A stretch of DNA of 64,000 bases from contig CM059432.1 in assembly GCA_030390025.1 (NCBI GenBank), positions 12,028,001-12,092,000 on the forward strand, given 5' to 3'. The notes beneath the pieces are model-generated. The model worked only from the letters and a program-made list of their open reading frames with translations. It had not been told where the DNA came from and ran no database searches. The stretch's first letter is position 1, and every line of letters starts with the position of its first letter. The DNA comes from Squalus acanthias (lineage: Eukaryota). The translations under genes and the position numbers were made by a program. Below, piece by piece: positions 2,581 through 52,775 of the stretch.

Positions 2581-2806
2581 CTTGAGAATGGGGAAGCAGC
2601 TAATTCATATTGTTGACTGGTGCTTATTTTATCACATACACACTCTGGCTGCTCATTCCGTAGACGCAACCAGACAGCAGAAGAGAGCTACAGGCTTTGA
2701 GTACAGGAGTAAAGAAGTCTTACTCCAATTATATAGGGCCTTGGTGAGACCACACCTGGAGTACTGTGTACAATTTTGGTCTCCTTACCTAAGGAAGGAT
2801 ATACTT

Positions 2807-3000
2807 TGTGGTAACACAATACAGCTTCCTGTGACTCGAACTTTATTACATCACTTCCTGTGATTAGTCCAGGATAAATACTGGGCTGATCAGTTGGATC
2901 CTGGAGAGGCATAGAGTAAGACCTCTTTTGTATGTAGCACCTTTTTAGTTGATTAAAGCTTACTTTAAGTTCACCACGCGTAAGGCTCATTCTTACGACA
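2807..3000 (+). repeat. 5' LTR (194 bp)
   Basis: Identical to the 3' LTR except for one T in a poly-T run; TATA-like gataaata at 2873-2880; ATTAAA at 2952-2957. Confidence 0.95.
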
Positions 3001-3078
3001 ATTTAATCAACTTTGAAAAACTTCGCACTCAAACTTTTTGGACGAACTCGGAACTAAGGATCCAGGGAATCACCCATC

Positions 3079-6000
3079 ATGGAAAACATCCTTAAACCAT
3101 CGCGTCTTGACTTGGACCCAAACACCCCAGCAGCCGGTAAGGTGTGGAAACACTGGTATCGCACGTTTGACAATTTTCTCGAATATTGCAAGGCTGATGA
3201 TGACTCAAAATTGCGGATACTCATCAACTGTGTCACCCCGAATGTATTTCAGTATGTCGAGGAATGGGGCAGTTACGAGGAGGCAATTCGGACGCTTAAA
3301 AGACTATATACTAAGACACCGAATGAGGTCTATGCCAGACATCTACTAGCTACAGCCCAACAAGGGCCGGAGGAATCCATTGATAAATTCCTCCAAGAGC
3401 TTCGCAGACTTAGTATGGACTGTAACTTTCAGGCGGCCTCAGCTGAGCTGTACCGTGAAGAAATGATCCATGATGCTTTCATCTGCGGGCTTGCCTCCCC
3501 ATTTATACGCCAGCGTCTACTGGAAAGTAAGACACTTGAGCTTCAGAGAGCTTATGACATGGCTTGCTCTCTAGATCTGACAAAAAGAAATGCAGACCTT
3601 TATACAGTGCCCAGACCTCGGTCTGCTGCCTTAACTACAGTCAGGCAATTTAAGAGGCCACAGGTGAACTCTATTAGGGAGGACTTTATCCCTGACGATC
3701 AATCTGATGACTTCACTGATGAAGAGGATGATGATCCCACTGTGGCAGCCTCTTGGCAATCTAAGAAATGCTTCTTTTGTGGTGATGAGTTTCACCCTCG
3801 GAAATTCTGCCCTGCTCGCAATGCGTTTTGCAGTCATTGCAACAAAAAGGGTCATTTTGCAAAGGTTTGCCTATCAAGAGCCTCTACGAGGGCTTATCAA
3901 GCTAAGTCCTACCGAACTGCCCCGGTAAGGGCCTATCAAGATGTTCCGGCTAAAATCTATCGTGCTTCCTCTCGGGTTTTCTCTCGAAGAAACACACCTA
4001 GAGTTTCAGCCACTCTTTGTGCAACGACACCAATTACAGCTGCTTGTCCTCAGAACCTATTCCATGCAGCTACAAAAGCATCAATTAATGGACATACTTT
4101 AGATGCCTTAATTGACTCAGGTAGCACTGATAGTTTCATTAGGGAACAGATTGTTGCAGAGTTAAAGCTACATGTTTTCCCATCGGACCAGGCAATTGCG
4201 ATGGCTCAGTCATCACTTAATACCAGAATTTCTGGCTTTTGTATGGTTGAAATAACACTTAATGGTCACAGGTATCCCTCCACCCGGCTTTCGGTGCTCA
4301 AGGACTTATGTAGTGATCTTATCTTAGGGCTAGATTTTCAAAAGCAGCATAAGAAGCTCACCATTGAGTTCGGCGGATCCAAACCTGAACTCACTATTTC
4401 TAATATACGACCTCGATTACCGTTCTGTGCATTGTCAGCAGCTTCACTGGATGAACCCTCACTGTTTACCAGTATCCCTCCTCGATGCAAACCGATTATA
4501 ACAAAGTCACGACGTTTCAGTCAGGAAGACCAGTCTTTTATTGCGGCTGAGATTTCTCGGCTTTTAGCAGAGGATATCATCGAGCCTTGTTCGTCGCCAT
4601 GGCGCGCCCAGGTCGTTATTGTTAAGAACCCTCTACAACCTCACAAGAAACGGCTGTGCATTGACTATTCACAGACCATCAATCAATATACGGACTTGGA
4701 CGCATACCCATTGCCGCGCATCGATGATATGGTTAATAAACTGGCTGAGTACACGGTGTTCTCAACATATGATCTGAAAAGTGCCTATCATCAGGTACCC
4801 TTGAAGGTCTCAGACAAGCAGTATACGGCCTTTGAAGCCAATGGACGGCTGTATCAATTTCGTCGCCTCCCCTTTGGGGTCACTAATGGAGTGGCTGTCT
4901 TCCAGCGAGCAATGGATGACCTGGTCAAACAGGAAGACTTAAAGGATACGTTTCCTTATCTGGACAATATTACTGTCGCAGGTCGCAATCAGCGGGAACA
5001 TGACGCCAATCTCCAACGATTTTGGGATGCACTCCAGCACCGTAATTTGACATTAAATGCGGCTAAATCCATTGAGTCACAACCAACCATCAACATCCTT
5101 GGCTATTGTGTGGGCAATGGCATCATTAAACCTGACCCTGAAAGGCTTCGCCCACTCCAAGAACTCCCGCCACCTAAGAATCCAGCCTCCTTGCGCCGGG
5201 CCCTCGGCCTGTTTGCATACTATGCTAAATGGATTCCTAACTTCTCGGACCGAATCCAACCTCTACTGAAGGCCAGCACATTCCCACTAGACACAGCGGC
5301 TGTTGCAGCCTTTAACCTCCTGAAAAAACAGTTGGAGAAAGCGGCTCTTCACTCCATCGATGAGAGTCTTCCTTTTGTTGTTGAGTGTGATGCCTCGGAG
5401 GTGGCGATCTCGGCCACTCTGAATCAGGAAGGTCGTCCGGTGGCATTTTTGTCCAGGACTTTTCAAGGGGCTGAGCTACATTATCCTCCAGTCGAGAAAG
5501 AAGCTACAGCCATCATAGAGGCAGTACGGAAGTGGACTCATCTCCTAGCTCGCCAGCACTTTACCTTAATCACGGACCAGCGATCGGTCGCCTTCATGCT
5601 CGATAATCGAAAATGGACCAAAATTAAAAATAATAAAATCCAGCTTTGGCGGCTGGAATTGGCCTCTTTTGGTTACACCATCCACTATCAACCTGGCAAG
5701 GAGAATGTGGCTCCGGATACCCTCACACGAGCATTCTGCTCCGCCATGGCACCCTCTACGCTCGTAGACATCCATGATGGGTTGTGTCATCCGGGCGTTA
5801 CTCGCATGCTACACTTCGTGCGGTCCCGAAATCTCCCATTCTCTACCGGGGATGTAAAGAAGATGTGCTCGGACTGCAGAGTCTGTGCGGAATTGAAACC
5901 TCAGTTTTTCCGCCCCTCGGGTGGTATACTCATACATGCGACCCAGCCAATGCAACGGCTTAGCATCGATTTTAAGGGGCCGTTGCCCTCTTCAACTCGC

Positions 6001-7029
6001 AACACTTATCTATTGACCATGGTCGATGAGTATTCCCGTTTTCCATTTGCCTTTCCCTGCCCCAATATGCTGACGACCACGGTTATCAGCTGCCTTGAGC
6101 AGGTATTTGCTTTCTGTGGCATGGCATCCTATGTTCATTCGGATCGGGGCCCTTCTTTTATGTCAGGAGAACTCAAGGCCTATCTCTCGGAACGGGGTAT
6201 TGCTGCCAGCAGAACGACGCCTTATCATCCGGTCGGGAATGGGCAAGTCGAGCGTTTTAACGCTATCATCTGGAATGCGGTACGTCTGGCTTTGAGATCT
6301 CGGGGCCTACCCAACCAGCAATGGGAAGCAGTACTTCCAGACGCATTACACTCCACACGGTCCCTCCTTTCGACCGCCACAAATATGACGCCTCATGAAC
6401 GGTTCTTCCGATTTCAGCGTCGCTCATCCTATGGGATATCTCTCCCGTTGTGGCTGACTGCACCGGGACCAGTGCTACTCCGAAGATATGTTCGGGCGTC
6501 TAAGAATGACCCCCTGGTAGATGAGGTTGAGCTCACTGACGTCAACCCTACCTACGCCTATATTCGGTATCCTGACGGTCGGGAATCTACCGTGTCATTA
6601 CGGGATCTGGCTCCCTGCCCACCGAAACATAGAAGGACACCAGGGGATGATATTGTACCAGGCACATCTCTGGGCTCGCCAGGTGCCTCTCATCACGATC
6701 TGGATCTGACGCCGGCTGGTACCTCACTCCAGCGTGCCGACCTGGGGCAGACTGACTACGAGCCCGTCGGGGCTCGCACGCGCAGCCACGATCCACCCCA
6801 TACCATACGCTCGGAAACGGATCTACCACAGCCCTGCCTGACACCCGTTCGGGCACCAGTACACAGTCAGGATCGTCCTGACCCCTCACAGAGCGGGCTG
6901 GATCACTCGGACTCTGGTCCACGGCCCGCGACGGGTAAACGGGCTAGGGGCCCTCTACCGCTACGAGAACCCAAACGGGTGCGGCTCTCCCTCGTCCAGC
7001 GGCTACGAAATGGAGGGAGAATGTGGTAA
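3079..7029 (+). CDS. Gag-Pol polyprotein, 1316 aa, uninterrupted
   Basis: Two zinc knuckles (CFFCGDEFHPRKFC, CSHCNKKGHFAKVC); protease ALIDSGS; RT LPFG...YLDN; RNase H CDAS/EKE/TD; integrase HHCC plus IDFKGP/HSDRG/VERFN (DDE). Confidence 0.95.
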   Translation: MENILKPSRLDLDPNTPAAGKVWKHWYRTFDNFLEYCKADDDSKLRILINCVTPNVFQYVEEWGSYEEAIRTLKRLYTKTPNEVYARHLLATAQQGPEESIDKFLQELRRLSMDCNFQAASAELYREEMIHDAFICGLASPFIRQRLLESKTLELQRAYDMACSLDLTKRNADLYTVPRPRSAALTTVRQFKRPQVNSIREDFIPDDQSDDFTDEEDDDPTVAASWQSKKCFFCGDEFHPRKFCPARNAFCSHCNKKGHFAKVCLSRASTRAYQAKSYRTAPVRAYQDVPAKIYRASSRVFSRRNTPRVSATLCATTPITAACPQNLFHAATKASINGHTLDALIDSGSTDSFIREQIVAELKLHVFPSDQAIAMAQSSLNTRISGFCMVEITLNGHRYPSTRLSVLKDLCSDLILGLDFQKQHKKLTIEFGGSKPELTISNIRPRLPFCALSAASLDEPSLFTSIPPRCKPIITKSRRFSQEDQSFIAAEISRLLAEDIIEPCSSPWRAQVVIVKNPLQPHKKRLCIDYSQTINQYTDLDAYPLPRIDDMVNKLAEYTVFSTYDLKSAYHQVPLKVSDKQYTAFEANGRLYQFRRLPFGVTNGVAVFQRAMDDLVKQEDLKDTFPYLDNITVAGRNQREHDANLQRFWDALQHRNLTLNAAKSIESQPTINILGYCVGNGIIKPDPERLRPLQELPPPKNPASLRRALGLFAYYAKWIPNFSDRIQPLLKASTFPLDTAAVAAFNLLKKQLEKAALHSIDESLPFVVECDASEVAISATLNQEGRPVAFLSRTFQGAELHYPPVEKEATAIIEAVRKWTHLLARQHFTLITDQRSVAFMLDNRKWTKIKNNKIQLWRLELASFGYTIHYQPGKENVAPDTLTRAFCSAMAPSTLVDIHDGLCHPGVTRMLHFVRSRNLPFSTGDVKKMCSDCRVCAELKPQFFRPSGGILIHATQPMQRLSIDFKGPLPSSTRNTYLLTMVDEYSRFPFAFPCPNMLTTTVISCLEQVFAFCGMASYVHSDRGPSFMSGELKAYLSERGIAASRTTPYHPVGNGQVERFNAIIWNAVRLALRSRGLPNQQWEAVLPDALHSTRSLLSTATNMTPHERFFRFQRRSSYGISLPLWLTAPGPVLLRRYVRASKNDPLVDEVELTDVNPTYAYIRYPDGRESTVSLRDLAPCPPKHRRTPGDDIVPGTSLGSPGASHHDLDLTPAGTSLQRADLGQTDYEPVGARTRSHDPPHTIRSETDLPQPCLTPVRAPVHSQDRPDPSQSGLDHSDSGPRPATGKRARGPLPLREPKRVRLSLVQRLRNGGRMW

Positions 7030-7092
7030 CACAATACAGCTTCCTGTGACTCGAACTTCATCCCGGCCTCCTAATCTTTTGGGGGGGGAGAA

Positions 7093-7287
7093 TGTGGTAA
7101 CACAATACAGCTTCCTGTGACTCGAACTTTATTACATCACTTCCTGTGATTAGTCCAGGATAAATACTGGGCTGATCAGTTGGATCCTGGAGAGGCATAG
7201 AGTAAGACCTCTTTTGTATGTAGCACCTTTTTTAGTTGATTAAAGCTTACTTTAAGTTCACCACGCGTAAGGCTCATTCTTACGACA
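7093..7287 (+). repeat. 3' LTR (195 bp)
   Basis: Preceded by PPT ggggggggagaa and followed by TSD TACTT. Confidence 0.95.
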
Positions 7288-7996
7288 TACTTGCCATAGA
7301 GGGAGTGCAACGAAGGTTCACAAGATTGATTCCTGAGATGGCGGGACTGTCGTATGAGAAGAGATTGAGTAAACTAGGCCTGTATTCTCTTGAATTCAGA
7401 AGAATGAGAGGGGATCTCATTGAAGCATACAAAATTATTGCAGGGCTTGACAGGATGGATGCTGGGAGAATGTTTCCCTTGGCTGGGGAGTCTAGAACCA
7501 GGGGCCACAGTCTCAAAAGATAAAGGGTAGGCCATTCAGGACTGAGATGAGAAGAAATTTCTTCACACAGAGGGTGGTGAATCTTTGGAATTCTCTACCC
7601 CAGAGGGTTGTGGAGGCTCAGTCATTTGGGTATATTCAGAACAGAAGTCAATAGATTTCTGACTAGTAAGGGCATCAAGGGATATGGCGATAGGGCCGGT
7701 GAATGGAGTTGAGGTAGAAGATCAGCCATGATCTCATTGAATGGCGGAGCAGGCTCGAAGGGCCAAATGGCCGACTCCTGCTCCTATTTCTTATGTTTAT
7801 TGCACTGCTAACGTGCTTACGATATAACTAGCGGCTGTAGCATTGCACTGCTGTTTGGGAGCAAATAAAATTGGTGAAATGCGTTCCAATTGACTCTTTG
7901 ATTCGTGAAGCGTACTGCTGCATGGATCCGCATGTATTGATCAACAGGATGTAACGATCAAACATAGGGCTGCCCAAACTGAATTACACTATTACA

Positions 7997-9287: not shown

Positions 9288-9639
9288 GTAAGGAGCAATG
9301 CTGGGAACACAGGAACATTGTGGTTGTGCCCGAGGACGGGGCAGGAACCCGTGCCCGGGGGTCGGGGGGATGTCACTGGTTTATTGGCCTCTGAAAATAA
9401 GATGCATCTCCCGGCGGATCCCTCCCTGTCGCTGCAAAAACCCGCACCAGACCCTCGCGGACTGCCCCAGCCCAGCCCTGGGGTTTAACAGCACCGGCTC
9501 GGTACCCGGGACAGGCGGAGCTTCAGAGCCGCCCTCCAGCCAGGGACATCTCCCCGGCACAGCGCCGCTCTTTGTGACCCTCTGTCCGGGCGGCCGAAAG
9601 CTGCCGAGGGAGAGATGGGCCGGCGGTGCTCGCTCACTT

Positions 9640-11600
9640 AATCACTCGTTCCCTCCCTCTCACCCACCCTCTCACTCATCCACTCACTCACTTAATCGCC
9701 CACTCCCTCACACTCACTCACCCATTCACTCACTCCCTCTCTCACACTCTCTCACCCATTCACTCACTCCCTCTCTCACACTCTCTCCCCCATTCACTCA
9801 CTCCCTCTCTCACACTCTCTCCCCCATTCACTCACTCCCTCTCTCACACTCTCTCCCCCATTCACTCACTCTCTCTCTCACACTCTCTCCCCATTCACTC
9901 ACTCCCTCTCTCACACTCTCTCCCCCATTCACTCACTCCCTCTCTCACACTCACTCACTCACTCCCTCTCTCACACTCTCTCACCCATTCACTCACTCCC
10001 TCTCTCACACCCATTCACTCACTCCCTCACACTCCCTCTCTCCCTCACACTCCCCCTCTCACTCTCTCACACTCACTCCCCCTCACTCTCCCTCCCTCAC
10101 TCACTCTCCCTCTCATTCCCTCACACTCCCTCTCTCACTCTCCCTCACACCCATTCACTCACTCCCTCACACTCCCTCTCTCCCCCTCTCTCCCCCTCAC
10201 TCTCCCTCTCTCCCCCTCACTCTCCCTCTCTCCCCCTCACTCTCCCTCTCTCCCCTCACTCTCCCTCTCTCCCCCTCACTCTCCCTCTCTCCCCCTCACT
10301 CTCCCTCTCTCCCCCTCACTCTCCTCTCTCCCCCTCACTCTCCCCCTCACTCTCCCTCTCTCTCCCCCTCACTCTCCTCTCTCTCCCCCTCACTCTCCCT
10401 CTCTCTCCCCCTCACTCTCCTCTCTCTCCCCCTCACTCTCCCTCTCTCTCCCTCTCTCCCCCTCTCTCTCTCCCTCTCTCCCCCTCACTCTCCCTCTCTC
10501 CCCCTCACTCTCCCTCTCTCCCCCTCACTCTCCCTCTCTCCCCTCACTCTCCCTCTCGCCCCCTCACTCTCCCTCTCTCCCCCTCACTCTCCCTCTCTCC
10601 CCCTCACTCTCCTCCACTCCCTCTCTCTCCCTCTCTCCCCCTCACTCTCCCTCTCTCTCCCCCTCACTCTCCCCTCTCTCCTCCCTCTCTCCCCCTCACT
10701 CTCCCTCTCTCCCCCTCACTCTCCCTCTCTCCCCCTCACTCTCACTCACTCTCCCTCTCTCCCCTCACTCTCCCCCTCACTCTCCCTCTCTCCCCTCACT
10801 CTCCCTCTCTCCCCCTCACTCTCCCTCTCTCCCCCTCACTCTCCCTCACTCTCCCTCTCTCCCTCTCTCCCCCTCTCTCCCTCTCTCCCCCTCACTCTCC
10901 CTCACTCTCCCTCTCTCCCCCTCACTCCCCCTCACTCTCCCTCTCTCCCCCTCTCTCCCCCCTCACTCCCCCTCACTCTCCCTCACTCTCCCTCTCTCCC
11001 CCTCACTCTCCCTCTCTCCCCCTCACTCCCCCTCTCTCCCCCTCACTCCCCCTCTCTCCCCCTCACTCCCCCTCACTCTCCCTCTCCTCCCCCTCACTCT
11101 CCCTCTCTCCTCACTCTCCCCTCTCTCTCCCTCACTCTCCCTCTCTCTCCCTCACTCTCCCTCTCTCCCCCTCACTCTCTCCCCCTCACTCTCCCCCCCT
11201 CACTCTCCCCCCCCTCACTCTCCCTCTCTCCCCCTCACTCTCCCTCTCTCCCCCTCACTCTCCCTCTCTCCCTCTCTCCCCCTCACTCTCCCTCTCTCCC
11301 TCTCTCCCCCTCACTCTCCCTCACTCTCCCTCTCTCCCCCTCACTCTCCCTCTCACCCCCTCACTCTCCCTCTCTCTCCCTCTCTCTCCCCCTCTCTCCC
11401 CCTCACTCTTCCTCACTCTCCCTCTCTCCCCCTCACTCTCCCTCTCTCCCCCTCACTCTCCCTCTCTCCCCCTCTCTCCCCCTCACTCTCCCTCTCTCAC
11501 CCTCACTCTCCCTCTCTCCCCCTCACTCTCCCTCTCTCCCCCTCACTCTCCCTCTCTCCCCCTCACTCTCCCTCTCTCCCCCTCACTCTCTCCCTCACTG
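9640..11600. repeat. About 2-kb C/T-rich minisatellite (unit near CCCCCTCACTCTCCCTCTCT)
   Basis: Tandem 20-bp and about 32-34-bp units; + strand almost free of G. Confidence 0.95.
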
Positions 11601-13534
11601 TCGTCCATGTAGATGGGCCTCGGCTGTAATTTCCCATCAGCCTCAAATAGCCGACGACACTTGCTGTCTGAGGCTCACGCAGGAGCCTTGCATCGGCAAG
11701 GAGTCAAAGCTGTCGGAAAAGGAGAATATTGGTGAAGAACATGCTCAGTTATCCCCTTTCGAGGTTCCAGCAGCGTCACTGAACCTCAACTAATCTGTAG
11801 CGCACTGGTGCGGTAATTGGCGACAGCACCGTGTTGCTCCAATTTCCTCTGTGTGTAAAAGTATTTCTGGAAAATCCGATGTTCAGTCAGCAGAGCTGAA
11901 CATTATCACATTTTAGGGTCTTTTCTACCCTTCTTACTCTAGATTATTTTGGCTCTCGTATCTTAGATCACTCTCAATTGAGGCCAAATCCCCATACTTT
12001 CAAGAGTGTCTATCCTAACCTTGAGACCTAGATAAGCTTTCAGTTCTGTGCCTGTCATTGGAAACAGAAAACCCTGCCCGTGGGTTGTTTCTAAATGACT
12101 GGAATTTGTGGTGTTCTCTCTCCAGTCCTCGAAAGCGGTCGAGCATCAAAATAGACCTTGTTTTAATCTTAAACTATTACTAAACAGACAATGAATAAAC
12201 AGTTAATCTAACTGATACACAATTATGTATTTAGTGTAGAAAGTCTATTATCTATTTATTTTAAGTGGTAAAACAGTAAGAACCACAATCTAGTGGCAAG
12301 TTTATCTATTACAGTATTTTTTTATATAGACTTATTCCTTTTCTTTCTTGTCAGCTTTTATGACGAAGGGATCAAGTGAGTCTACCTTATGGGGAAAGAG
12401 CAGGGGGGAGTGGGACTAATTGGATCGCTCTTTCAATGAGCCGGCACAGGCACGATGGGCCGAATGGCCTCCTCCTGTGCTGTATGAAACTATGATTCCA
12501 TCATTCTATGATTATTTTTTTTCCCTATGAAGCTGGCAATAGGGCAGACTATCAACGACAAACTTGCTGAATGTACAGACCCAATCACTTCAATACCTTT
12601 CATTGGTTGCTCTGGCTTGTTTGAATTTTCATAACTGACCCTCGGATTCAATAATAGTTGGTTGTCATACTTTTAACTGAACAAATCTCACGGTTTCTGC
12701 TTCTTCAAAGGTGTGTTGCTTGTTCCCATCAAACCTGCGATTTGAGCAGTCTTGCAATGTATGTACCAAATTTCACTAGGAAATGGGTTTGTGTTTTTTT
12801 GTTAACTGCAGCTGGCTTTGAAATCTTGTGACTGGATTTAAAAGAGACAGGCATCAAGCCAAAAATACTACATTTTTGAACCCGACACTAATGAGTGTCA
12901 TTGAAGTGTTGCTTGTGAAGATCAAAGCTGCATTCATTCTACAAATAACGGTGCATCAGCATTTCCGCTTTGGAAACCACAATGATCATTTTCTATCTCT
13001 GAAGGACAATACTCCATTGCAACAGAAGCGCATTTTCATCACAAGTTGACGTTAAGCATAAAAGTGATTCACAGAACGATGCAGCACAGAAGGAGGCCAT
13101 TCGGCCCATCGAGCCTGTGCCGGCTCTTTGAAAGAGCTCTCCAATTCGTCCCACTCCCCCTCCGCTCGTTTCCCCATAGCCCTGCAAATTTCTCCCCTTC
13201 TTGTATGTTTTTCCCTTTTTAAGTATTTATTTAAGGATTGTGGTCAGCAAATGCCATTCCATATCACTATAGGTGTAGCTTCTGCAGTGCCCAGGTGACA
13301 CTCCTTTTTAATAGCGGATTAAGCTATCTTTTATGGCGGAGGCTTACGAATTATATAAAGCATTGGATGTTCCTCCCTAGGCCATTGCCCTGGCCCACTA
13401 AAGCTCTGATGTCTCTCTGAGAAGTCAGTGTGAACTGTGAAAGTTAGAGTGAGTGCTTGGGCCAGCCTAGCTCAGGGTCTGCACATGGCATTTTTCAGAC
13501 TTGCAAAATAATTTTTTGCCTGAATGGACCAGAC

Positions 13535-40936: not shown

Positions 40937-41039
40937 ACTGTATCACTCAGTTGCTGATCTCAGCTGTGGCACTGCGAGAGGCGTCTAGCGGAGGGAATCT
41001 CATCACTAGGCTGTTGTTCACGGTGCAGCTCTTACGGGC

Positions 41040-44000
41040 TGGCTCTTCGGGGGGGGTTTAAACTAATTTGTCAGGGGGATGGGAAAAAGGGCTGTAGTCC
41101 ACGAGCCAGTGGTGAGTGTAGGGAGGTACTGAGGAGGGTATCAAGGTCGCAGGAATATACCGGCAGACAGGAAGATGGCTTGAAGTGTGTCTACTTCAAT
41201 GCAAGGAGCATCCGGAATAAGGTAGGAGAACTTGGAGCGTGGATTGGTAATTGGGACTACGATGTGGTGGCCATTACGGAGACATGGTTAGAACAGGGAC
41301 AGGAATGGTTGTTGGAAGTTCCGGGGTATAGATGTTTCAGTAAGAGTAGGGAAGTTGGTAAGAAAGGTGGAGGAGTAGCATTGTTAATCAAGGATAGTTT
41401 AACAGCGGCAGAAAGGCAGTTCGAGGGGGATCTGCCGTCTGAGGTAATATGGGCTGAAGTTAGAAATAGGAAAGGAGCGGTCACGTTGTTAGGAGTTTTC
41501 TACAGGCCCCCAAATAGTAATAGAGATGTGGAGGAAGAAATTGCAAAGCAGATTATGAATAGGTGTGGAGGTCACAGAGTAGTTGTCATGGGTGACTTCA
41601 ACTTTCCAAATATTGATTGGAACCTTTATAGGTCAAACAGTTCGGATGGGATAGTTTTTGCACAGTGTGTGCAGGAGGGTTTCCTGACACAATATGTGGA
41701 TAGGCCGACAAGAGGTGGGGCCACGTTGGATTTGGTACTGGGTAATGAACCGGGCCAAGTGTTTGATTTGTATATGGGAGAGCACTTTGGAGATAGTGAC
41801 CACAATTCGGTAACTTTCACTATTGCAATGGAGAGGGATAGGGCCATACGGCAGGGCAGGGTTTATAATTGGGGGAGGGGTAATTATGATGCGATTAGGC
41901 AAGAATTAGGGAGTATAAGATGGGAACAGAAACGATCAGGGAAAGGCACAAACGAAAAGTGGAGCTTTTTCATGGAGCAATTACTGCGTGTCCTTGATAG
42001 GTATGTCCCTGTCAGGCAGGGAGGAAATGGCCGAGTGAGAGAACCATGGTTCACAAAAGAGGTTGAATGTCTAGTCAAGAGGAAAAAGGAAGCGTATGTA
42101 AGGATGAGAAAACAAGGTTCAGTTGGGTCGATTGAGGGGTACAAGGTAACAAGGAATGAGCTAAAAAAAGAGCTTAGGAGAGCTAGGAGGGGGCATGAGA
42201 AGTCCTTGGCGGGTTGGATCAAGAAAAACCCCAAGGCCTTTTACTCTTATGTGAGAAATAAAAGAATGACTAGGGTGAGGGTAGGGCCGGTCAAGGACAG
42301 TAGTGGGAACTTGTGCATGGAGTCAGAAGAGATAGGAGAGGTGATGAATGAATACTTTTCGTCAGTGTTCACCGAGGAGAGGGGCCATGTTCTTGAGGAT
42401 GAGAGTGTGATAAAGGTGGATAGGCTGGAGGTGGTAGATGTTCTGAGGTAAGATGTTTTAGCAATTTTGAAGAACCTGAGGGTCGATAAGTCCCCTGGGC
42501 CAGATGGGATATATCCTAGGATTCTTTGGGAGGCAAGGGAGGAGATTGCAGAGCCTCTGGCTTTGATCTTTGGGTCCTCACTGTCCACGGGGATGGTGCC
42601 AGAGGACTGGAGAGTGCCGAATGTTGTTCCTCTCTTCAAGAAAGGAAATAGGAATGACCCTGGTAATTATAGGCCGGTTAGTCTTACTTCGGTGGTTGGT
42701 AAGATAATGGAAAAGGTCCTGAGGGATAGGATTTATGACCATTTGGAAAGGGGCAACTTAATCAGGGATAGTCAACACGGATTCGTGAAGGGTAAGTCTT
42801 GCCTATCAAATTTGATTGAATTCTTTGAGGAGGTAACTAAGTGTGTAGATGAAGGTAGAGCAGTTGATGTCGTATACATGGATTTTAGTAAGGCGTTTGA
42901 TAAGGTTCCCCATGGTCGTCTCATGAAGAAAGTAAGGAGTTGTGGGATAGAGGGAAATTTGGCCGATTGGATAAGTAACTGGCTATCTCATAGAAGGCAG
43001 AGGGTGGTGGTGGATGGAACATTTTCGGACTGGAGACCAGTTACCAGCGGTGTGCCACAGGGGTCGGTGCTGGGTCCTCTGCTGTTTGTGATTTTTATCA
43101 ATGACTTGGAGGAGGGAACTGAAGGGTGGATCAGTAAATTTGCTGATGACACCAAGATTGGTGGAGCAGTGGATGAGGTGGAGGGCAGTTGTAGGCTGCA
43201 AAGAGACATTGATAGGATGCAGAGCTGGGCCGAAAAATGGCAGATGGAATTTAACCCTGATAAGTGCGAGGTGATTCATTTTGGTAGGGCAAATTTGAAT
43301 AAGGATTACAGGGTCAACGGCAGGGTTCTGAGGAACGTGGAGGAGCAGAGGGATCTGGGGGTTCATATCCACAGATCTCTGAAGGTTGCCACTCAAGTGG
43401 ATAGAGCAGTAAAGAAGGCCTATGGTGTGTTGGCGTTTATTAACAGAGGGTTTGAGTTTAAGAACCGTGAGGTTATGCTGCAACTGTACAGGACCTTGGT
43501 GAGACCACATTTGGAATATTGTGTGCAGTTCTGGTCACCTCACTATAGGAAGGACGTGGAAGCATTGGAAAGAGTGCAAAGGAGATTTACCAGGATGCTG
43601 CCTGGTTTGGGGGGGGAGGTCTTATGAGGAAAGATTGAAGGAGTTGGGGCTTTTCTCTTTAGAGCGGAGGAGGATGAGAGGCGACTTAATAGAGGTTTAT
43701 AAGATGATGAGGGGGATAGATAGAGTGGATGTTCAGAGACTATTTCCTCGGGTAGAGGCAGCTGTTACAAGGGGGCATAACTATAAGGTGCATGGGGGGA
43801 GATATAGAAGGGATGTCCGAGGTAGATTCTTTACTCAGAGAGTGGTTGGGGTGTGGAATGGACTGCCTGCTGTGATAGTGGAGTCGGTCACTTTAGGAAC
43901 TTTCAAGCGGTTATTGGATAAGCACATGGAGCACACCAGAGTGATAGGGAGTGTGATAGCTTGATCTTGGTCTCGGACAATGCTCGGCACAACATCGAGG

Positions 44001-49622: not shown

Positions 49623-52600
49623 GAATTATCGGATTGTCGTAAAAACCCATCCGGTTCACTAATGTCCTTTAGGGAAGGAAATCTGCCGTCCTTACCCGGT
49701 CTGGCCTATATGTGACTCCAGATCCACAGCAATGTGGGTGACTCTTAACTGCTCTCTGAAATGGCCCAGCAAGACACTCAGTTGTAACACACCGCTACGA
49801 AACAAAATAATAAAAATGAAACCGGACGGACCACCCGGCATCGACCTCGGCACCGACTACGGACACGGCAACGGCACACCCAGCCCAGTTGACCCTGCAA
49901 AGTCCTCCTCACCAACATCTGGGGACTTGTGCCAAAATTGGGAGAACAGTCCCACAGACTAGTCAAGCAACAGCCTGACATAGTCATACTCACAGAATCA
50001 TACCTTTTAGCCAATGTCTCAAACTCCTCCATCACCATCCCTGGGTATGTCCTGTCCCACCAGCAGGACAGACCCACCAGGGGTGGCGGCACAGTGGTAT
50101 ACACTCGGGAAGGAGTGGCCCTGGGAGTCCTCAACATTGACTCCGGACCCCATGAAGTCTCATGGGTTCAGGTCAAGCATGGGCAAGGAAACCTCCTGCT
50201 GATTACCACCTACCGCCCTCCCTCAGCTGATGAATCAGTGCTCCACCATGTTGAACACCGCTTGGAAGAAGCACTGAGAGTAGCAAGGACGCAGAATTTA
50301 CTCTGGGTGGGGGACTTCAATGTCCATCACCAAGAGTGGCTCGGTAGCATGACTATTGACCGAGCTGGCCGAGTCCTGAAGGACAAAGCTGCCAGTCTGG
50401 GCCTGCGACAGGTGGTGAGAGAACCAACACGAGGGAAAACCTACTTGACCTCGTCCTCACCAATCTACCTGTCGCAGATGCATCTGTCTATGACAGTATT
50501 GGTAGCAGTGACCACCGCACTATCATTGTGGAGACGAAGTCCCGTCTTCACACTGAGGACACCCTCCATCGTGTTGTGTGGCACTACCACTGTGCTACAT
50601 GGGATAGATTCAGAACAGATGAAGCAGCTCAAACTGGGCATCCATGAGGCGCTGTGGGCCATCAGCAGCAGCAGAATAGTATTCCACCACAATCTGTAAC
50701 CTCATGGCCCAGCATATCCCTCACTCTACCATTACCATCAAGCCAGGGCACCAACCCTGGTTCAATAAGGAGTGTAGAAGAGCATGCCAGGAGCAGCACT
50801 GGGCGTACCTAAAAATGAGGTGCCAACCTGGGGAAGCTGCAACACAGGACTACATACATGCTAAAAAGCAGAAGCAGCATGCTATAGACAGGGCTAAGCA
50901 ATCCCACAATCAATGGATCAGATCAAAGCTCTGCAGTCCTGCCACATCCAGTCGTGAATGGTGGTGGACCATTAAACAACTAACGGGAGGAGGAGGCTCC
51001 ATTAATATCCCCATCCTCGATGATGGTGGAGCCCAGCATGTGAGTGCAAAAGACAAGGCTGAAGCGTTTGCAACCATCTTCAGCCAGAAGTGCCGAGTGG
51101 ATGATCCATATCGGCCTCCTCCTGCGGTCCCCACCAACACATAAGCCAGTCTTCAGCCAATTCGATTCACTCCACATGATATCAAGAAACGGCTGAACGC
51201 ACTGGACACAGCAAAGGCTATGGGCCCTGATAACATCCCGGCTATCGTGCTGAAGACTTGTGCTCCAGAATTAGCCGCACCTCTAGCCAAGCTGTTCCAG
51301 TACAGCTACAACACTGACATCTATCCGACAATATGGAAAATTGCCCAGGTGCGTCCTGTCCACAAAAAACAGGACAAGTCCAATCCGGCCAATTACTGCC
51401 CCATCAGTCTACTCTCAATCATCAGCAAAGTGATGGAAGGTGTCATCGACAGTGCTATCAAGCGGCACTTACTCACCAATAATCTGCTCACTGATGCCCA
51501 GTTTGGGTTCTGCCAGGACCACTCAGCTGCCGACCTCATTACAGCCTTGGTCCAAACATGGACAAAGGAGCTGAATTCCAGAGGTGAGGTGAGAGTGACT
51601 GCCCTTGACATCAAGGCAGCATTTGACCGAGTGTGGCATGAAGGAGCCCTAGTAAAACTGAAGTCAATGGGAATCGGGGGGAAAACTCTCCACTGGTTGG
51701 AGTCATACCTAGCACAAAGGAGGATGGTTGTGGTGATTGAAGGTCAATCATCACAGCCCCAGGACATCGCTGCAGGAGTTCCTCAGGGCAGTGTCCTAGG
51801 CCCAACCATCTTCAGCTGCTTCATCAATGACCTTCCCTCCAACATAAGGTCAGACATGGGGATATTCGCTGATGACTGCACAGTGTTCAGCGCCATTCAC
51901 AACTCCTCAGATAATGAAGCAGTCCATGCCCGCATGCAACAAGACCTGGACGACGTTCAGGCTTGGGCTGATAACTGGCAGGTAACATTCGCGCCACAGA
52001 AGTGCCAGGCAATGACTATCTCCAACAAGAGAGAGTCTAACCACCATCCCATGACATTCAATGGTATTACCATCACCAAATCCCCCACCATCAACATCCT
52101 GGGGGTCACCAATGACCAGAAACTTAACTGGACCAGCCACATAAATACTGTGGCAACAAGAGCAGGTCAGAGGCTAGGTATTCTGCGGCGAGTGTCTCAC
52201 CTCCTGACTCCCCAAAGCCTTTCTATCATCTACAAGGCACAAGTAAGGAGTGTGATGGAATACTCTCCACTTGCCTGGATGAGTGCAGCTCCAACAACAC
52301 TCAGGAAGCTCGACACCATCCAGGACAAAGCAGCCCGCTTGATTGGCACCCCCTCCACCACCTTAAACATCCACTCCCTCCACCACCAGCGCACCGTGGC
52401 TGCAGTGTGTACCATCTACAATATGCACTGCAGCAACTCGCCAAGGCTTCTTCGGCAGCACCTCCCAAACCCGCGACCTCTTCCACCTGGAAGGACAAGG
52501 GCAGCAGGCGCATGGGAACACCACCACCTCCAAGTTCCCCTCCAAGTCACACATCATCCTGACTTAGAAGTATATCGCTGTTCCTTCATCGTCTCTGGGT

Positions 52601-52775
52601 CAAAATCCTGGAACTCCCTACCTAACAGCACTGTGGGAGTATCTTCACCACACGGACTGCAGTGGTTCAAGAAGGCGGCTCACCACCACCTTCTCAAGGG
52701 CAACTAGGGATGGGCAATAAATGCTGGCCTTGCCAGCGACGCCCACATCCCATTAAAAAAAATGAACAAAAAAAT
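49623..52775 (+). mobile_element. Near full-length LINE (APE plus RT, CR1/L2-group-like), apparently single-ORF, inactivated
   Basis: VLLTNIWGL, VILTES, VGDFNVHH, PQGSVLGP, FADD; several frameshifts and stops; A-rich tail. Confidence 0.9.

Follow-up and report, generated by a model that had tools for sequence, protein, structure and literature searches.

A Gypsy LTR retrotransposon of Squalus acanthias with a primer-binding site complementary to its own LTR and probable tRNA-independent priming

The stretch of DNA analysed here (the window, 64,000 nucleotides from the 3.7-Gb genome of Squalus acanthias) contains at positions 2807-7287 an intact Gypsy LTR retrotransposon, which is inserted within another repeat. 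The assignment to Ty3/Gypsy can be deduced from the TG...CA LTRs, the TSD, the polypurine tract (PPT) and the domain order PR-RT-RH-IN. The following features are distinguished, all on the forward strand.

2802-2806 (+): left TSD, TACTT
2807-3000 (+): 5' LTR, TG...CA, 194 nt
2873-2880 (+): TATA-like box, whose position would place the transcription start near 2903
2947-2957 (+): LTR arm, the predicted self-primer, with ATTAAA at 2952-2957
2956-2957 (+): putative cut site and putative end of minus-strand strong-stop DNA; rearrangement joints at 2957
2957-2970 (+): small predicted hairpin directly 3' of the arm, weak singly
2977-2996 (+): predicted U5 hairpin, not kept in all relatives
3001-3012 (+): spacer A and primer-binding site complementary to 2947-2957, no TGG
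3079-7029 (+): single gag-pol ORF of 1316 aa with two CCHC knuckles, PR, RT (YLDN), RH and IN
7020-7059 (+): 40-nt insert borne by a subfamily, AA and LTR nucleotides 1-38
7080-7092 (+): PPT
7093-7287 (+): 3' LTR, 195 nt, its arm (7234-7244) lacking a downstream partner
7288-7292 (+): right TSD, TACTT

The two LTRs are identical apart from one extra T in the 3' LTR. In the genome, the 21-mer spanning LTR end and primer site occurs 2,259 times exactly, its reversed control not once, and 100% identity across 594 nt was seen in all 40 scored matches, corresponding to at least 40 identical copies. The element family is young and abundant and, given these numbers of exact junctions and identical copies, its primer site works despite lacking TGG. 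The 40-nt insert, which holds the stop codon of the window copy and is present in three of 13 fetched copies besides the window, has the appearance of a plus-strand DNA 5' end that was captured. The TATA-like box is enclosed by an inverted repeat of U3 (2867-2905), in or near which the template switches of the insertions L215 and L218 lie. At G000:C1:562450-575191, primer-site junctions are spaced by about 4,247 nt, which suggests a tandem array of elements sharing LTRs. The window also harbours two broken non-LTR retrotransposons with endonuclease and RT domains (40958-43627 and 49893-52707) and, at 9600-11800, a CT-rich low-complexity repeat of about 2 kb giving rise to spurious long frames.

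Pfam detects PR, RT, RH and IN in the ORF. Gag has two CCHC knuckles, which are found in 105 of 121 proteins. Neither Chromo nor SH3_Tf2-1 was detected in the protein (P0001), its C-terminal 209 aa or three relatives, and no chromodomain is among the precomputed domains of 120 hits. The original prediction of two Gag zinc knuckles and no recognisable chromodomain is borne out, and its view that the element does not look like Tf1/sushi is supported as far as domain content alone is concerned. On inspection, ILG is present and GPY/F absent. The best match among solved structures is Ty3 Gag-Pol, and the ESM Atlas returned generic Gag names only. The catalytic motif of the RT reads YLDN (window 4957-4968, residues 627-630 of P0001); at this YxDD site, xxDN is found in 88 of 120 homologues and xxDD in 29, with three not parsed. 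The window family carries YLDN despite more than 2,000 young copies and must clearly have been mobile. In a quick tree, 36 rows form one clade with a support of 100, apart from Gmr1-like and retrovirus-like rows and one unplaced row. The retrovirus-like loci from the same genome that were used as outgroup (L177-L182) show a YVDD motif in RT and a long third frame, and L178 a retroviral-type RNase H. Assignment to the Gmr1 clade was considered and rejected, IN not being located upstream of RT in the window element, unlike in L121. From the features of the Mag lineage, the two CCHC knuckles are present, while the GxV/I module in IN was not recognised by inspection. As judged by feature description, the element may fit the Cigr-1 clade; a named Ciona match was not among the 120 hits.

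For the junction between 5' LTR and internal region, it had been predicted that an A and an 11-mer follow the LTR in place of the TGG of a tRNA primer site, that this 11-mer is the exact reverse complement of an LTR segment containing ATTAAA, and that the partner is missing after the 3' LTR. All of these statements hold. Position 3001 is A and 3002-3012 reads TTTAATCAACT, which is present once in the window, after the 5' LTR, and its reverse complement, AGTTGATTAAA, is found in the window only at 2947 and 7234, one per LTR. The ATTAAA is located at 2952-2957, and the arm at 7234-7244 is without a partner downstream. When the LTR was shuffled 20,000 times with its dinucleotides preserved, a complement of at least 11 nt to the bases 3' of it arose just 3 times, and the same LTR and primer site are present in all 30 fetched copies. 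In the predicted fold, the pairs of the duplex have probabilities between 0.84 and 1.0, except for the last pair with 0.43; the overall folding energy of the leader is unremarkable (z -0.3). As TGG is missing after the LTR, the 3' end of a mature tRNA cannot pair at 3002-3012. Against the single tRNA found in 1.22 Mb of DNA, the best match was 4 nt, and Rfam returned nothing of note at 2700-3200.

At E <= 1e-50, 1,638 of 7,999 scored candidates match the element, and named members of the clade come from corals, crustaceans, tunicates, a nematode and cartilaginous fishes, while no relative was found among the viral contigs searched. Related loci were fetched from metagenomes (80), genome bins (13) and sister families in the same genome (30). 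The eukaryotic retrotransposons found in bacterial genome bins (L111-L123) are most likely host contamination of these bins. L124-L153 represent at least two further families of the clade in the same genome, having canonical TATA boxes, arms of 12-13 nt and, in most of those listed, open 1315-aa frames. When the pairing count was restricted to the 27 loci that contain the start of gag preceded by 60 nt or more, the sequence after CA-A matched the locus's own LTR at 12-14 of 14 positions and in the same register in 22 cases; the five non-matching loci (L039, L056, L089, L094, and L112) have no LTR pair beside gag. Further cases of pairing are found on circular contigs (L064 with 13/14 and, by eye, L042 with 14/14).

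Compensatory covariation between the two 11-mers, proposed as a check with the original prediction, was found clade-wide. In 17 elements, aligned as segments cut around the candidate arms so that the alignment leans toward the structure, 94.1% of 238 cells are paired and 11 of the 14 pairs have changed on both sides; none of 500 shuffles scored as high, and slid registers gave 18-48%. Excluded from this alignment were L034, L038, L063, L091, L101, L105, L124, and L127-L153 as near-duplicates, and also L064 and L042. The 11-bp core comprises 183 Watson-Crick pairs, one G-U pair and three mismatches (187 cells), with 12 distinct 11-mers, and the mismatches stem from old copies having the pairing base in their 3' LTR. 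By parsimony on the Pol tree, at least 22 swaps are required, and L032 versus L040, nearly the same family, differ by a change from G-C to T-A on both arms. Two Gmr1-like elements with TGG sites, serving as outgroup, show a self-match of just 4-7 nt. Within the window family, no compensated variants were found at the two primer-site positions analysed, which gave 3 and 0 variants, with the LTR arm unchanged in all three. In a second family, a change just past the 13-nt duplex is uncompensated in 29 of 30 fetched copies, the remaining one being an inverted copy. A hairpin begins directly 3' of the arm in 10 of the 17 loops, none of them significant singly. In RNA helices kept by selection alone, G-U pairs are usual. 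The near absence of G-U pairs suggests that one arm is copied into the other, as would be expected if the primer were copied into the primer site in every cycle.

The duplex had also been proposed to mask the poly(A) signal at the 5' LTR only. This is indeed predicted for the window family: in the modelled 5' context ATTAAA is paired, its probability of being unpaired amounting to 0-0.17, and two of three 3' contexts leave it more open. Furthermore, 10 of the 17 arms end in AATAAA or ATTAAA. Both observations would also suit a purely regulatory fold hiding the signal of the 5' LTR, with some host RNA, e.g., a tRNA fragment, acting as primer. Seven of the 17 arms, however, lack a canonical signal, and in four of the 17 elements the AATAAA/ATTAAA hexamer lies in the loop, outside the duplex. 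With no more than 10 arms ending in the signal and four signals in the loop, masking is not the conserved function and does not stand as main cause; from the predicted folds, it is likely to be at most a side benefit in families whose arm ends in a poly(A) signal. A purely regulatory fold would furthermore require many different host primers for the twelve 11-mers, is at odds with just one G-U pair in 187 cells and leaves the rearrangement joints at 2957 described below unexplained, and we regard it as highly improbable.

For locating the end of first-strand DNA, the genome was searched for LTRs with a non-standard base at 2956, at 2957 and at the control position 2966. The search at 2956 gave 25 LTR matches, 12 of which belong to seven rearranged insertions, all joined at 2957. 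Three of these insertions have a 134-nt deletion in both LTRs with a 5-nt microhomology, two have a 21-nt deletion in both LTRs with a 3-nt microhomology, and in two the sequence from 2957 onward is joined without homology to the LTR start in inverted orientation, together with two bases of the PPT. Exact 5-bp TSDs were found in four of the five insertions with deletions in both LTRs. At 2957, the search resulted in one match, a point change, and no long-range join at 2958, and at the control position 2966 in 11 matches without any long-range join before 2967, among them one 11-nt deletion in a single LTR. The other 13 matches at 2956 are point changes in 11 insertions. In three of these elements both LTRs are changed, versus none of six paired controls at 2966. 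Untemplated addition at strong-stop ends is established for retroviral RTs, and the both-LTR changes at 2956 fit such an addition. A deletion common to both LTRs arises no later than the first strand jump. The genomic joints are most simply explained by an end of minus strong-stop DNA at 2957 and a putative cut of the RNA near 2956/2957, in agreement with the low probability of the last pair in the predicted fold (0.43 versus 0.84-1.0 for the others). The numbers are small, with three positions tested, and five of the seven joints lie in microhomologies of 3-5 nt; the pair with the 21-nt deletion or the trio with the 134-nt deletion could share a parent, though the internal parts differ.

In addition, six junctions have a non-T after the 11-mer, and three of them continue as reverse complement of the LTR (56, 114, and 153 nt). 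The second family contributes one inverted copy of 297 nt, running through the PPT and flanked by an exact TSD. All four insertions read LTR end, A and then LTR sequence in reverse complement, which starts at the arm and runs backwards, so that the copied primer site anneals to or continues from the arm. The 56-nt copy ends at 2902, beside the start predicted from the TATA-like box, and the others extend further. Three of the four copies reach further upstream than transcription could plausibly start, so that the 5' primer by itself does not account for their template, and the longer ones need a 3' RNA copy or a fold-back as template. The near-palindromic or inverted LTR insertions at L194:1315-1664, L215, L218 and L244/L270, which have TG...CA ends, are fossils of failed reverse transcription. 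The existence of fold-back products (L194, L215, and L218) might be taken to indicate that the match between the arms is a by-product at the DNA level, with fold-back copying or conversion rewriting the primer site from the LTR and priming performed by a protein or small RNA. This is very unlikely, considering the rarity of fold-back products (3 of the 2,259 junctions of the window family), which moreover would not stop at 11-15 nt in one register throughout the clade, and the fact that this explanation names no primer.

The clade-wide covariation and the joints at the loop-side end of the duplex support the originally suggested tRNA-independent priming in a Gypsy lineage other than Tf1/sushi. 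On these sequence data, we consider Tf1-like self-priming with a cut near 2956/2957 to be the probable mechanism, with good though not complete confidence. In this pathway, a duplex is predicted to form between the LTR arm 2947-2957 and the site 3002-3012. At the loop-side end of this duplex (about 2956/2957), the element's RNase H would presumably cut the RNA and thereby free the primer. RT would then copy from 3002 back to 2957 and stop, and the resulting strong-stop DNA would jump to the 3' copy of 2957 onward. Later, plus-strand synthesis would copy the primer into a new primer site, by which the arms would stay matched, and the linear DNA would have the two-base ends AA-TG and CA-AT.

Where transcription starts bears on the nature of the primer. 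In two sister families, TATAAAT is located about 100 nt before the arm end, and in the three families of the same genome examined TATA-like boxes are found 85-103 nt before it, pointing to starts 45-70 nt upstream of the arm. For the window element, promoter anatomy favours a putative start near 2903, which precedes the arm by about 45 nt, so that the primer would be a longer capped fragment than in Tf1. Alternatively, the primer might be supplied by the 3' LTR of the same or a co-packaged RNA, with a start at or near 2957, the arm in U3, a cut after the arm and priming at the 5' site. A strong-stop end at 2957 would then be accounted for without a cut in the 5' copy, and so would inverted copies that traverse U3 and, in the case of L244, continue past the PPT into the internal region; moreover, a poly(A) signal just before R, as implied here, is known from some retroviruses. 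However, the TATA-like boxes of the three families lie at the above distance from the arm end and not at 30 nt, the first jump would have to be intermolecular, and the primer site is unchanged in the three elements with both-LTR changes at 2956, and the inverted copies are also explained by mis-annealing of plus-strand DNA to uncopied 3' RNA. Hence, a primer from the 3' LTR copy appears improbable compared with self-priming from the 5' leader.

In the portions of the literature covered by our search, Gypsy self-priming is tied to Tf1/sushi chromoviruses, with experimental demonstration for Tf1. If the proposed mechanism is true, a second and very active animal lineage is added, and tRNA-free priming arose or survived more than once. 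The clade would offer dozens of natural primer variants for comparison, and as miscopied intermediates are kept in thousands of young copies, genome sequence allows the cut site to be located and tested to the single base. The clade would be overlooked or wrongly classified by annotation tools that depend on a tRNA site, and the natural switch between YxDD and YxDN can be used for probing the role of the second aspartate. 'Selfy', which we take to be the Repbase name for a self-priming group of non-chromovirus Gypsy elements, may be the window clade, and an earlier Repbase description of the clade may exist. The literature searched, with most subscription journals and Repbase outside its range, contained no paper on self-priming in the window clade or on YLDN/YXDN and none with both 'selfy' and 'gypsy', and the available sections of PMC3601003, PMC6934838, and PMC12440569 contain nothing on the clade. 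Only tentatively, it is proposed that self-priming arose independently in this large Gypsy clade, which lies outside the chromoviruses and extends from corals to vertebrates, and that this origin is as yet uncatalogued. The primer would not be the 5' tip of the RNA, as it is in Tf1, but an internal arm that doubles as poly(A) signal and is either excised from a longer capped leader or provided by the 3' LTR, and the RT would be mostly of the YxDN type; this proposal may well not hold in full.

According to excerpts on Tf1, its primer consists of the first 11 bases and is released by an RNase H cut (PMC7175516, PMC4600332, PMC5341516), which falls between bases 11 and 12 (PMC7175516), and the leader forms a 'pretzel' of three duplexes in an element possessing a chromodomain (PMC10085805). 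With Tf1, Tf2, Tj1 and Tf1/sushi elements, the window element shares the lack of a tRNA site and about 11 nt of complementarity linking a part of the LTR to the site that follows the 5' LTR. A cut at the duplex end, as in Tf1, is suggested for the window element by the genomic joints at 2957. The helices beside the central duplex of Tf1 may have a weak parallel in the window element. In contrast to Tf1/sushi, neither a chromodomain nor a Tf2-type SH3 match is found and the RT has YxDN, and the two CCHC knuckles compare with none in Tf1 and one in sushi-ichi in the part of supplement 3 of PMC2774666 concerned. As further differences, the arm overlaps the poly(A) signal, the loop is just 23-65 nt long, and the arm may be an internal part of the RNA instead of its 5' end. 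Because the chromodomain test failed, the element is not filed under Tf1/sushi.

A resemblance in domain features is seen with Cigr-1 (GyDB branch 2), which the same part of supplement 3 of PMC2774666 characterizes by two CCHC knuckles, ILG and IN after RH, without GPY/F, chromodomain or env. The window element agrees in all of these features, i.e., two CCHC knuckles, ILG, IN after RH, loss of GPY/F and no chromodomain or env, a feature code that is also common to part of the Osvaldo clade. Cigr-1 is recorded from molluscs and annelids in passages of PMC6238403 and PMC8556966, and occurrence in marine invertebrates and tunicates is likewise a common trait (PMC6238403, PMC8556966); the sections on Cigr-1 in these two papers and in PMC2774666 give no priming mode. 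In plants, self-priming has been predicted from complementarity for the Gypsy element Tcn1 and the Copia elements TAR, Houba and Osr-1, as stated in an excerpt of PMC6317226. Tcn1 is a chromovirus and TAR a Copia element, and both lineages and hosts differ from those of the window element; in TAR, self-priming would nevertheless have arisen outside the chromoviruses.
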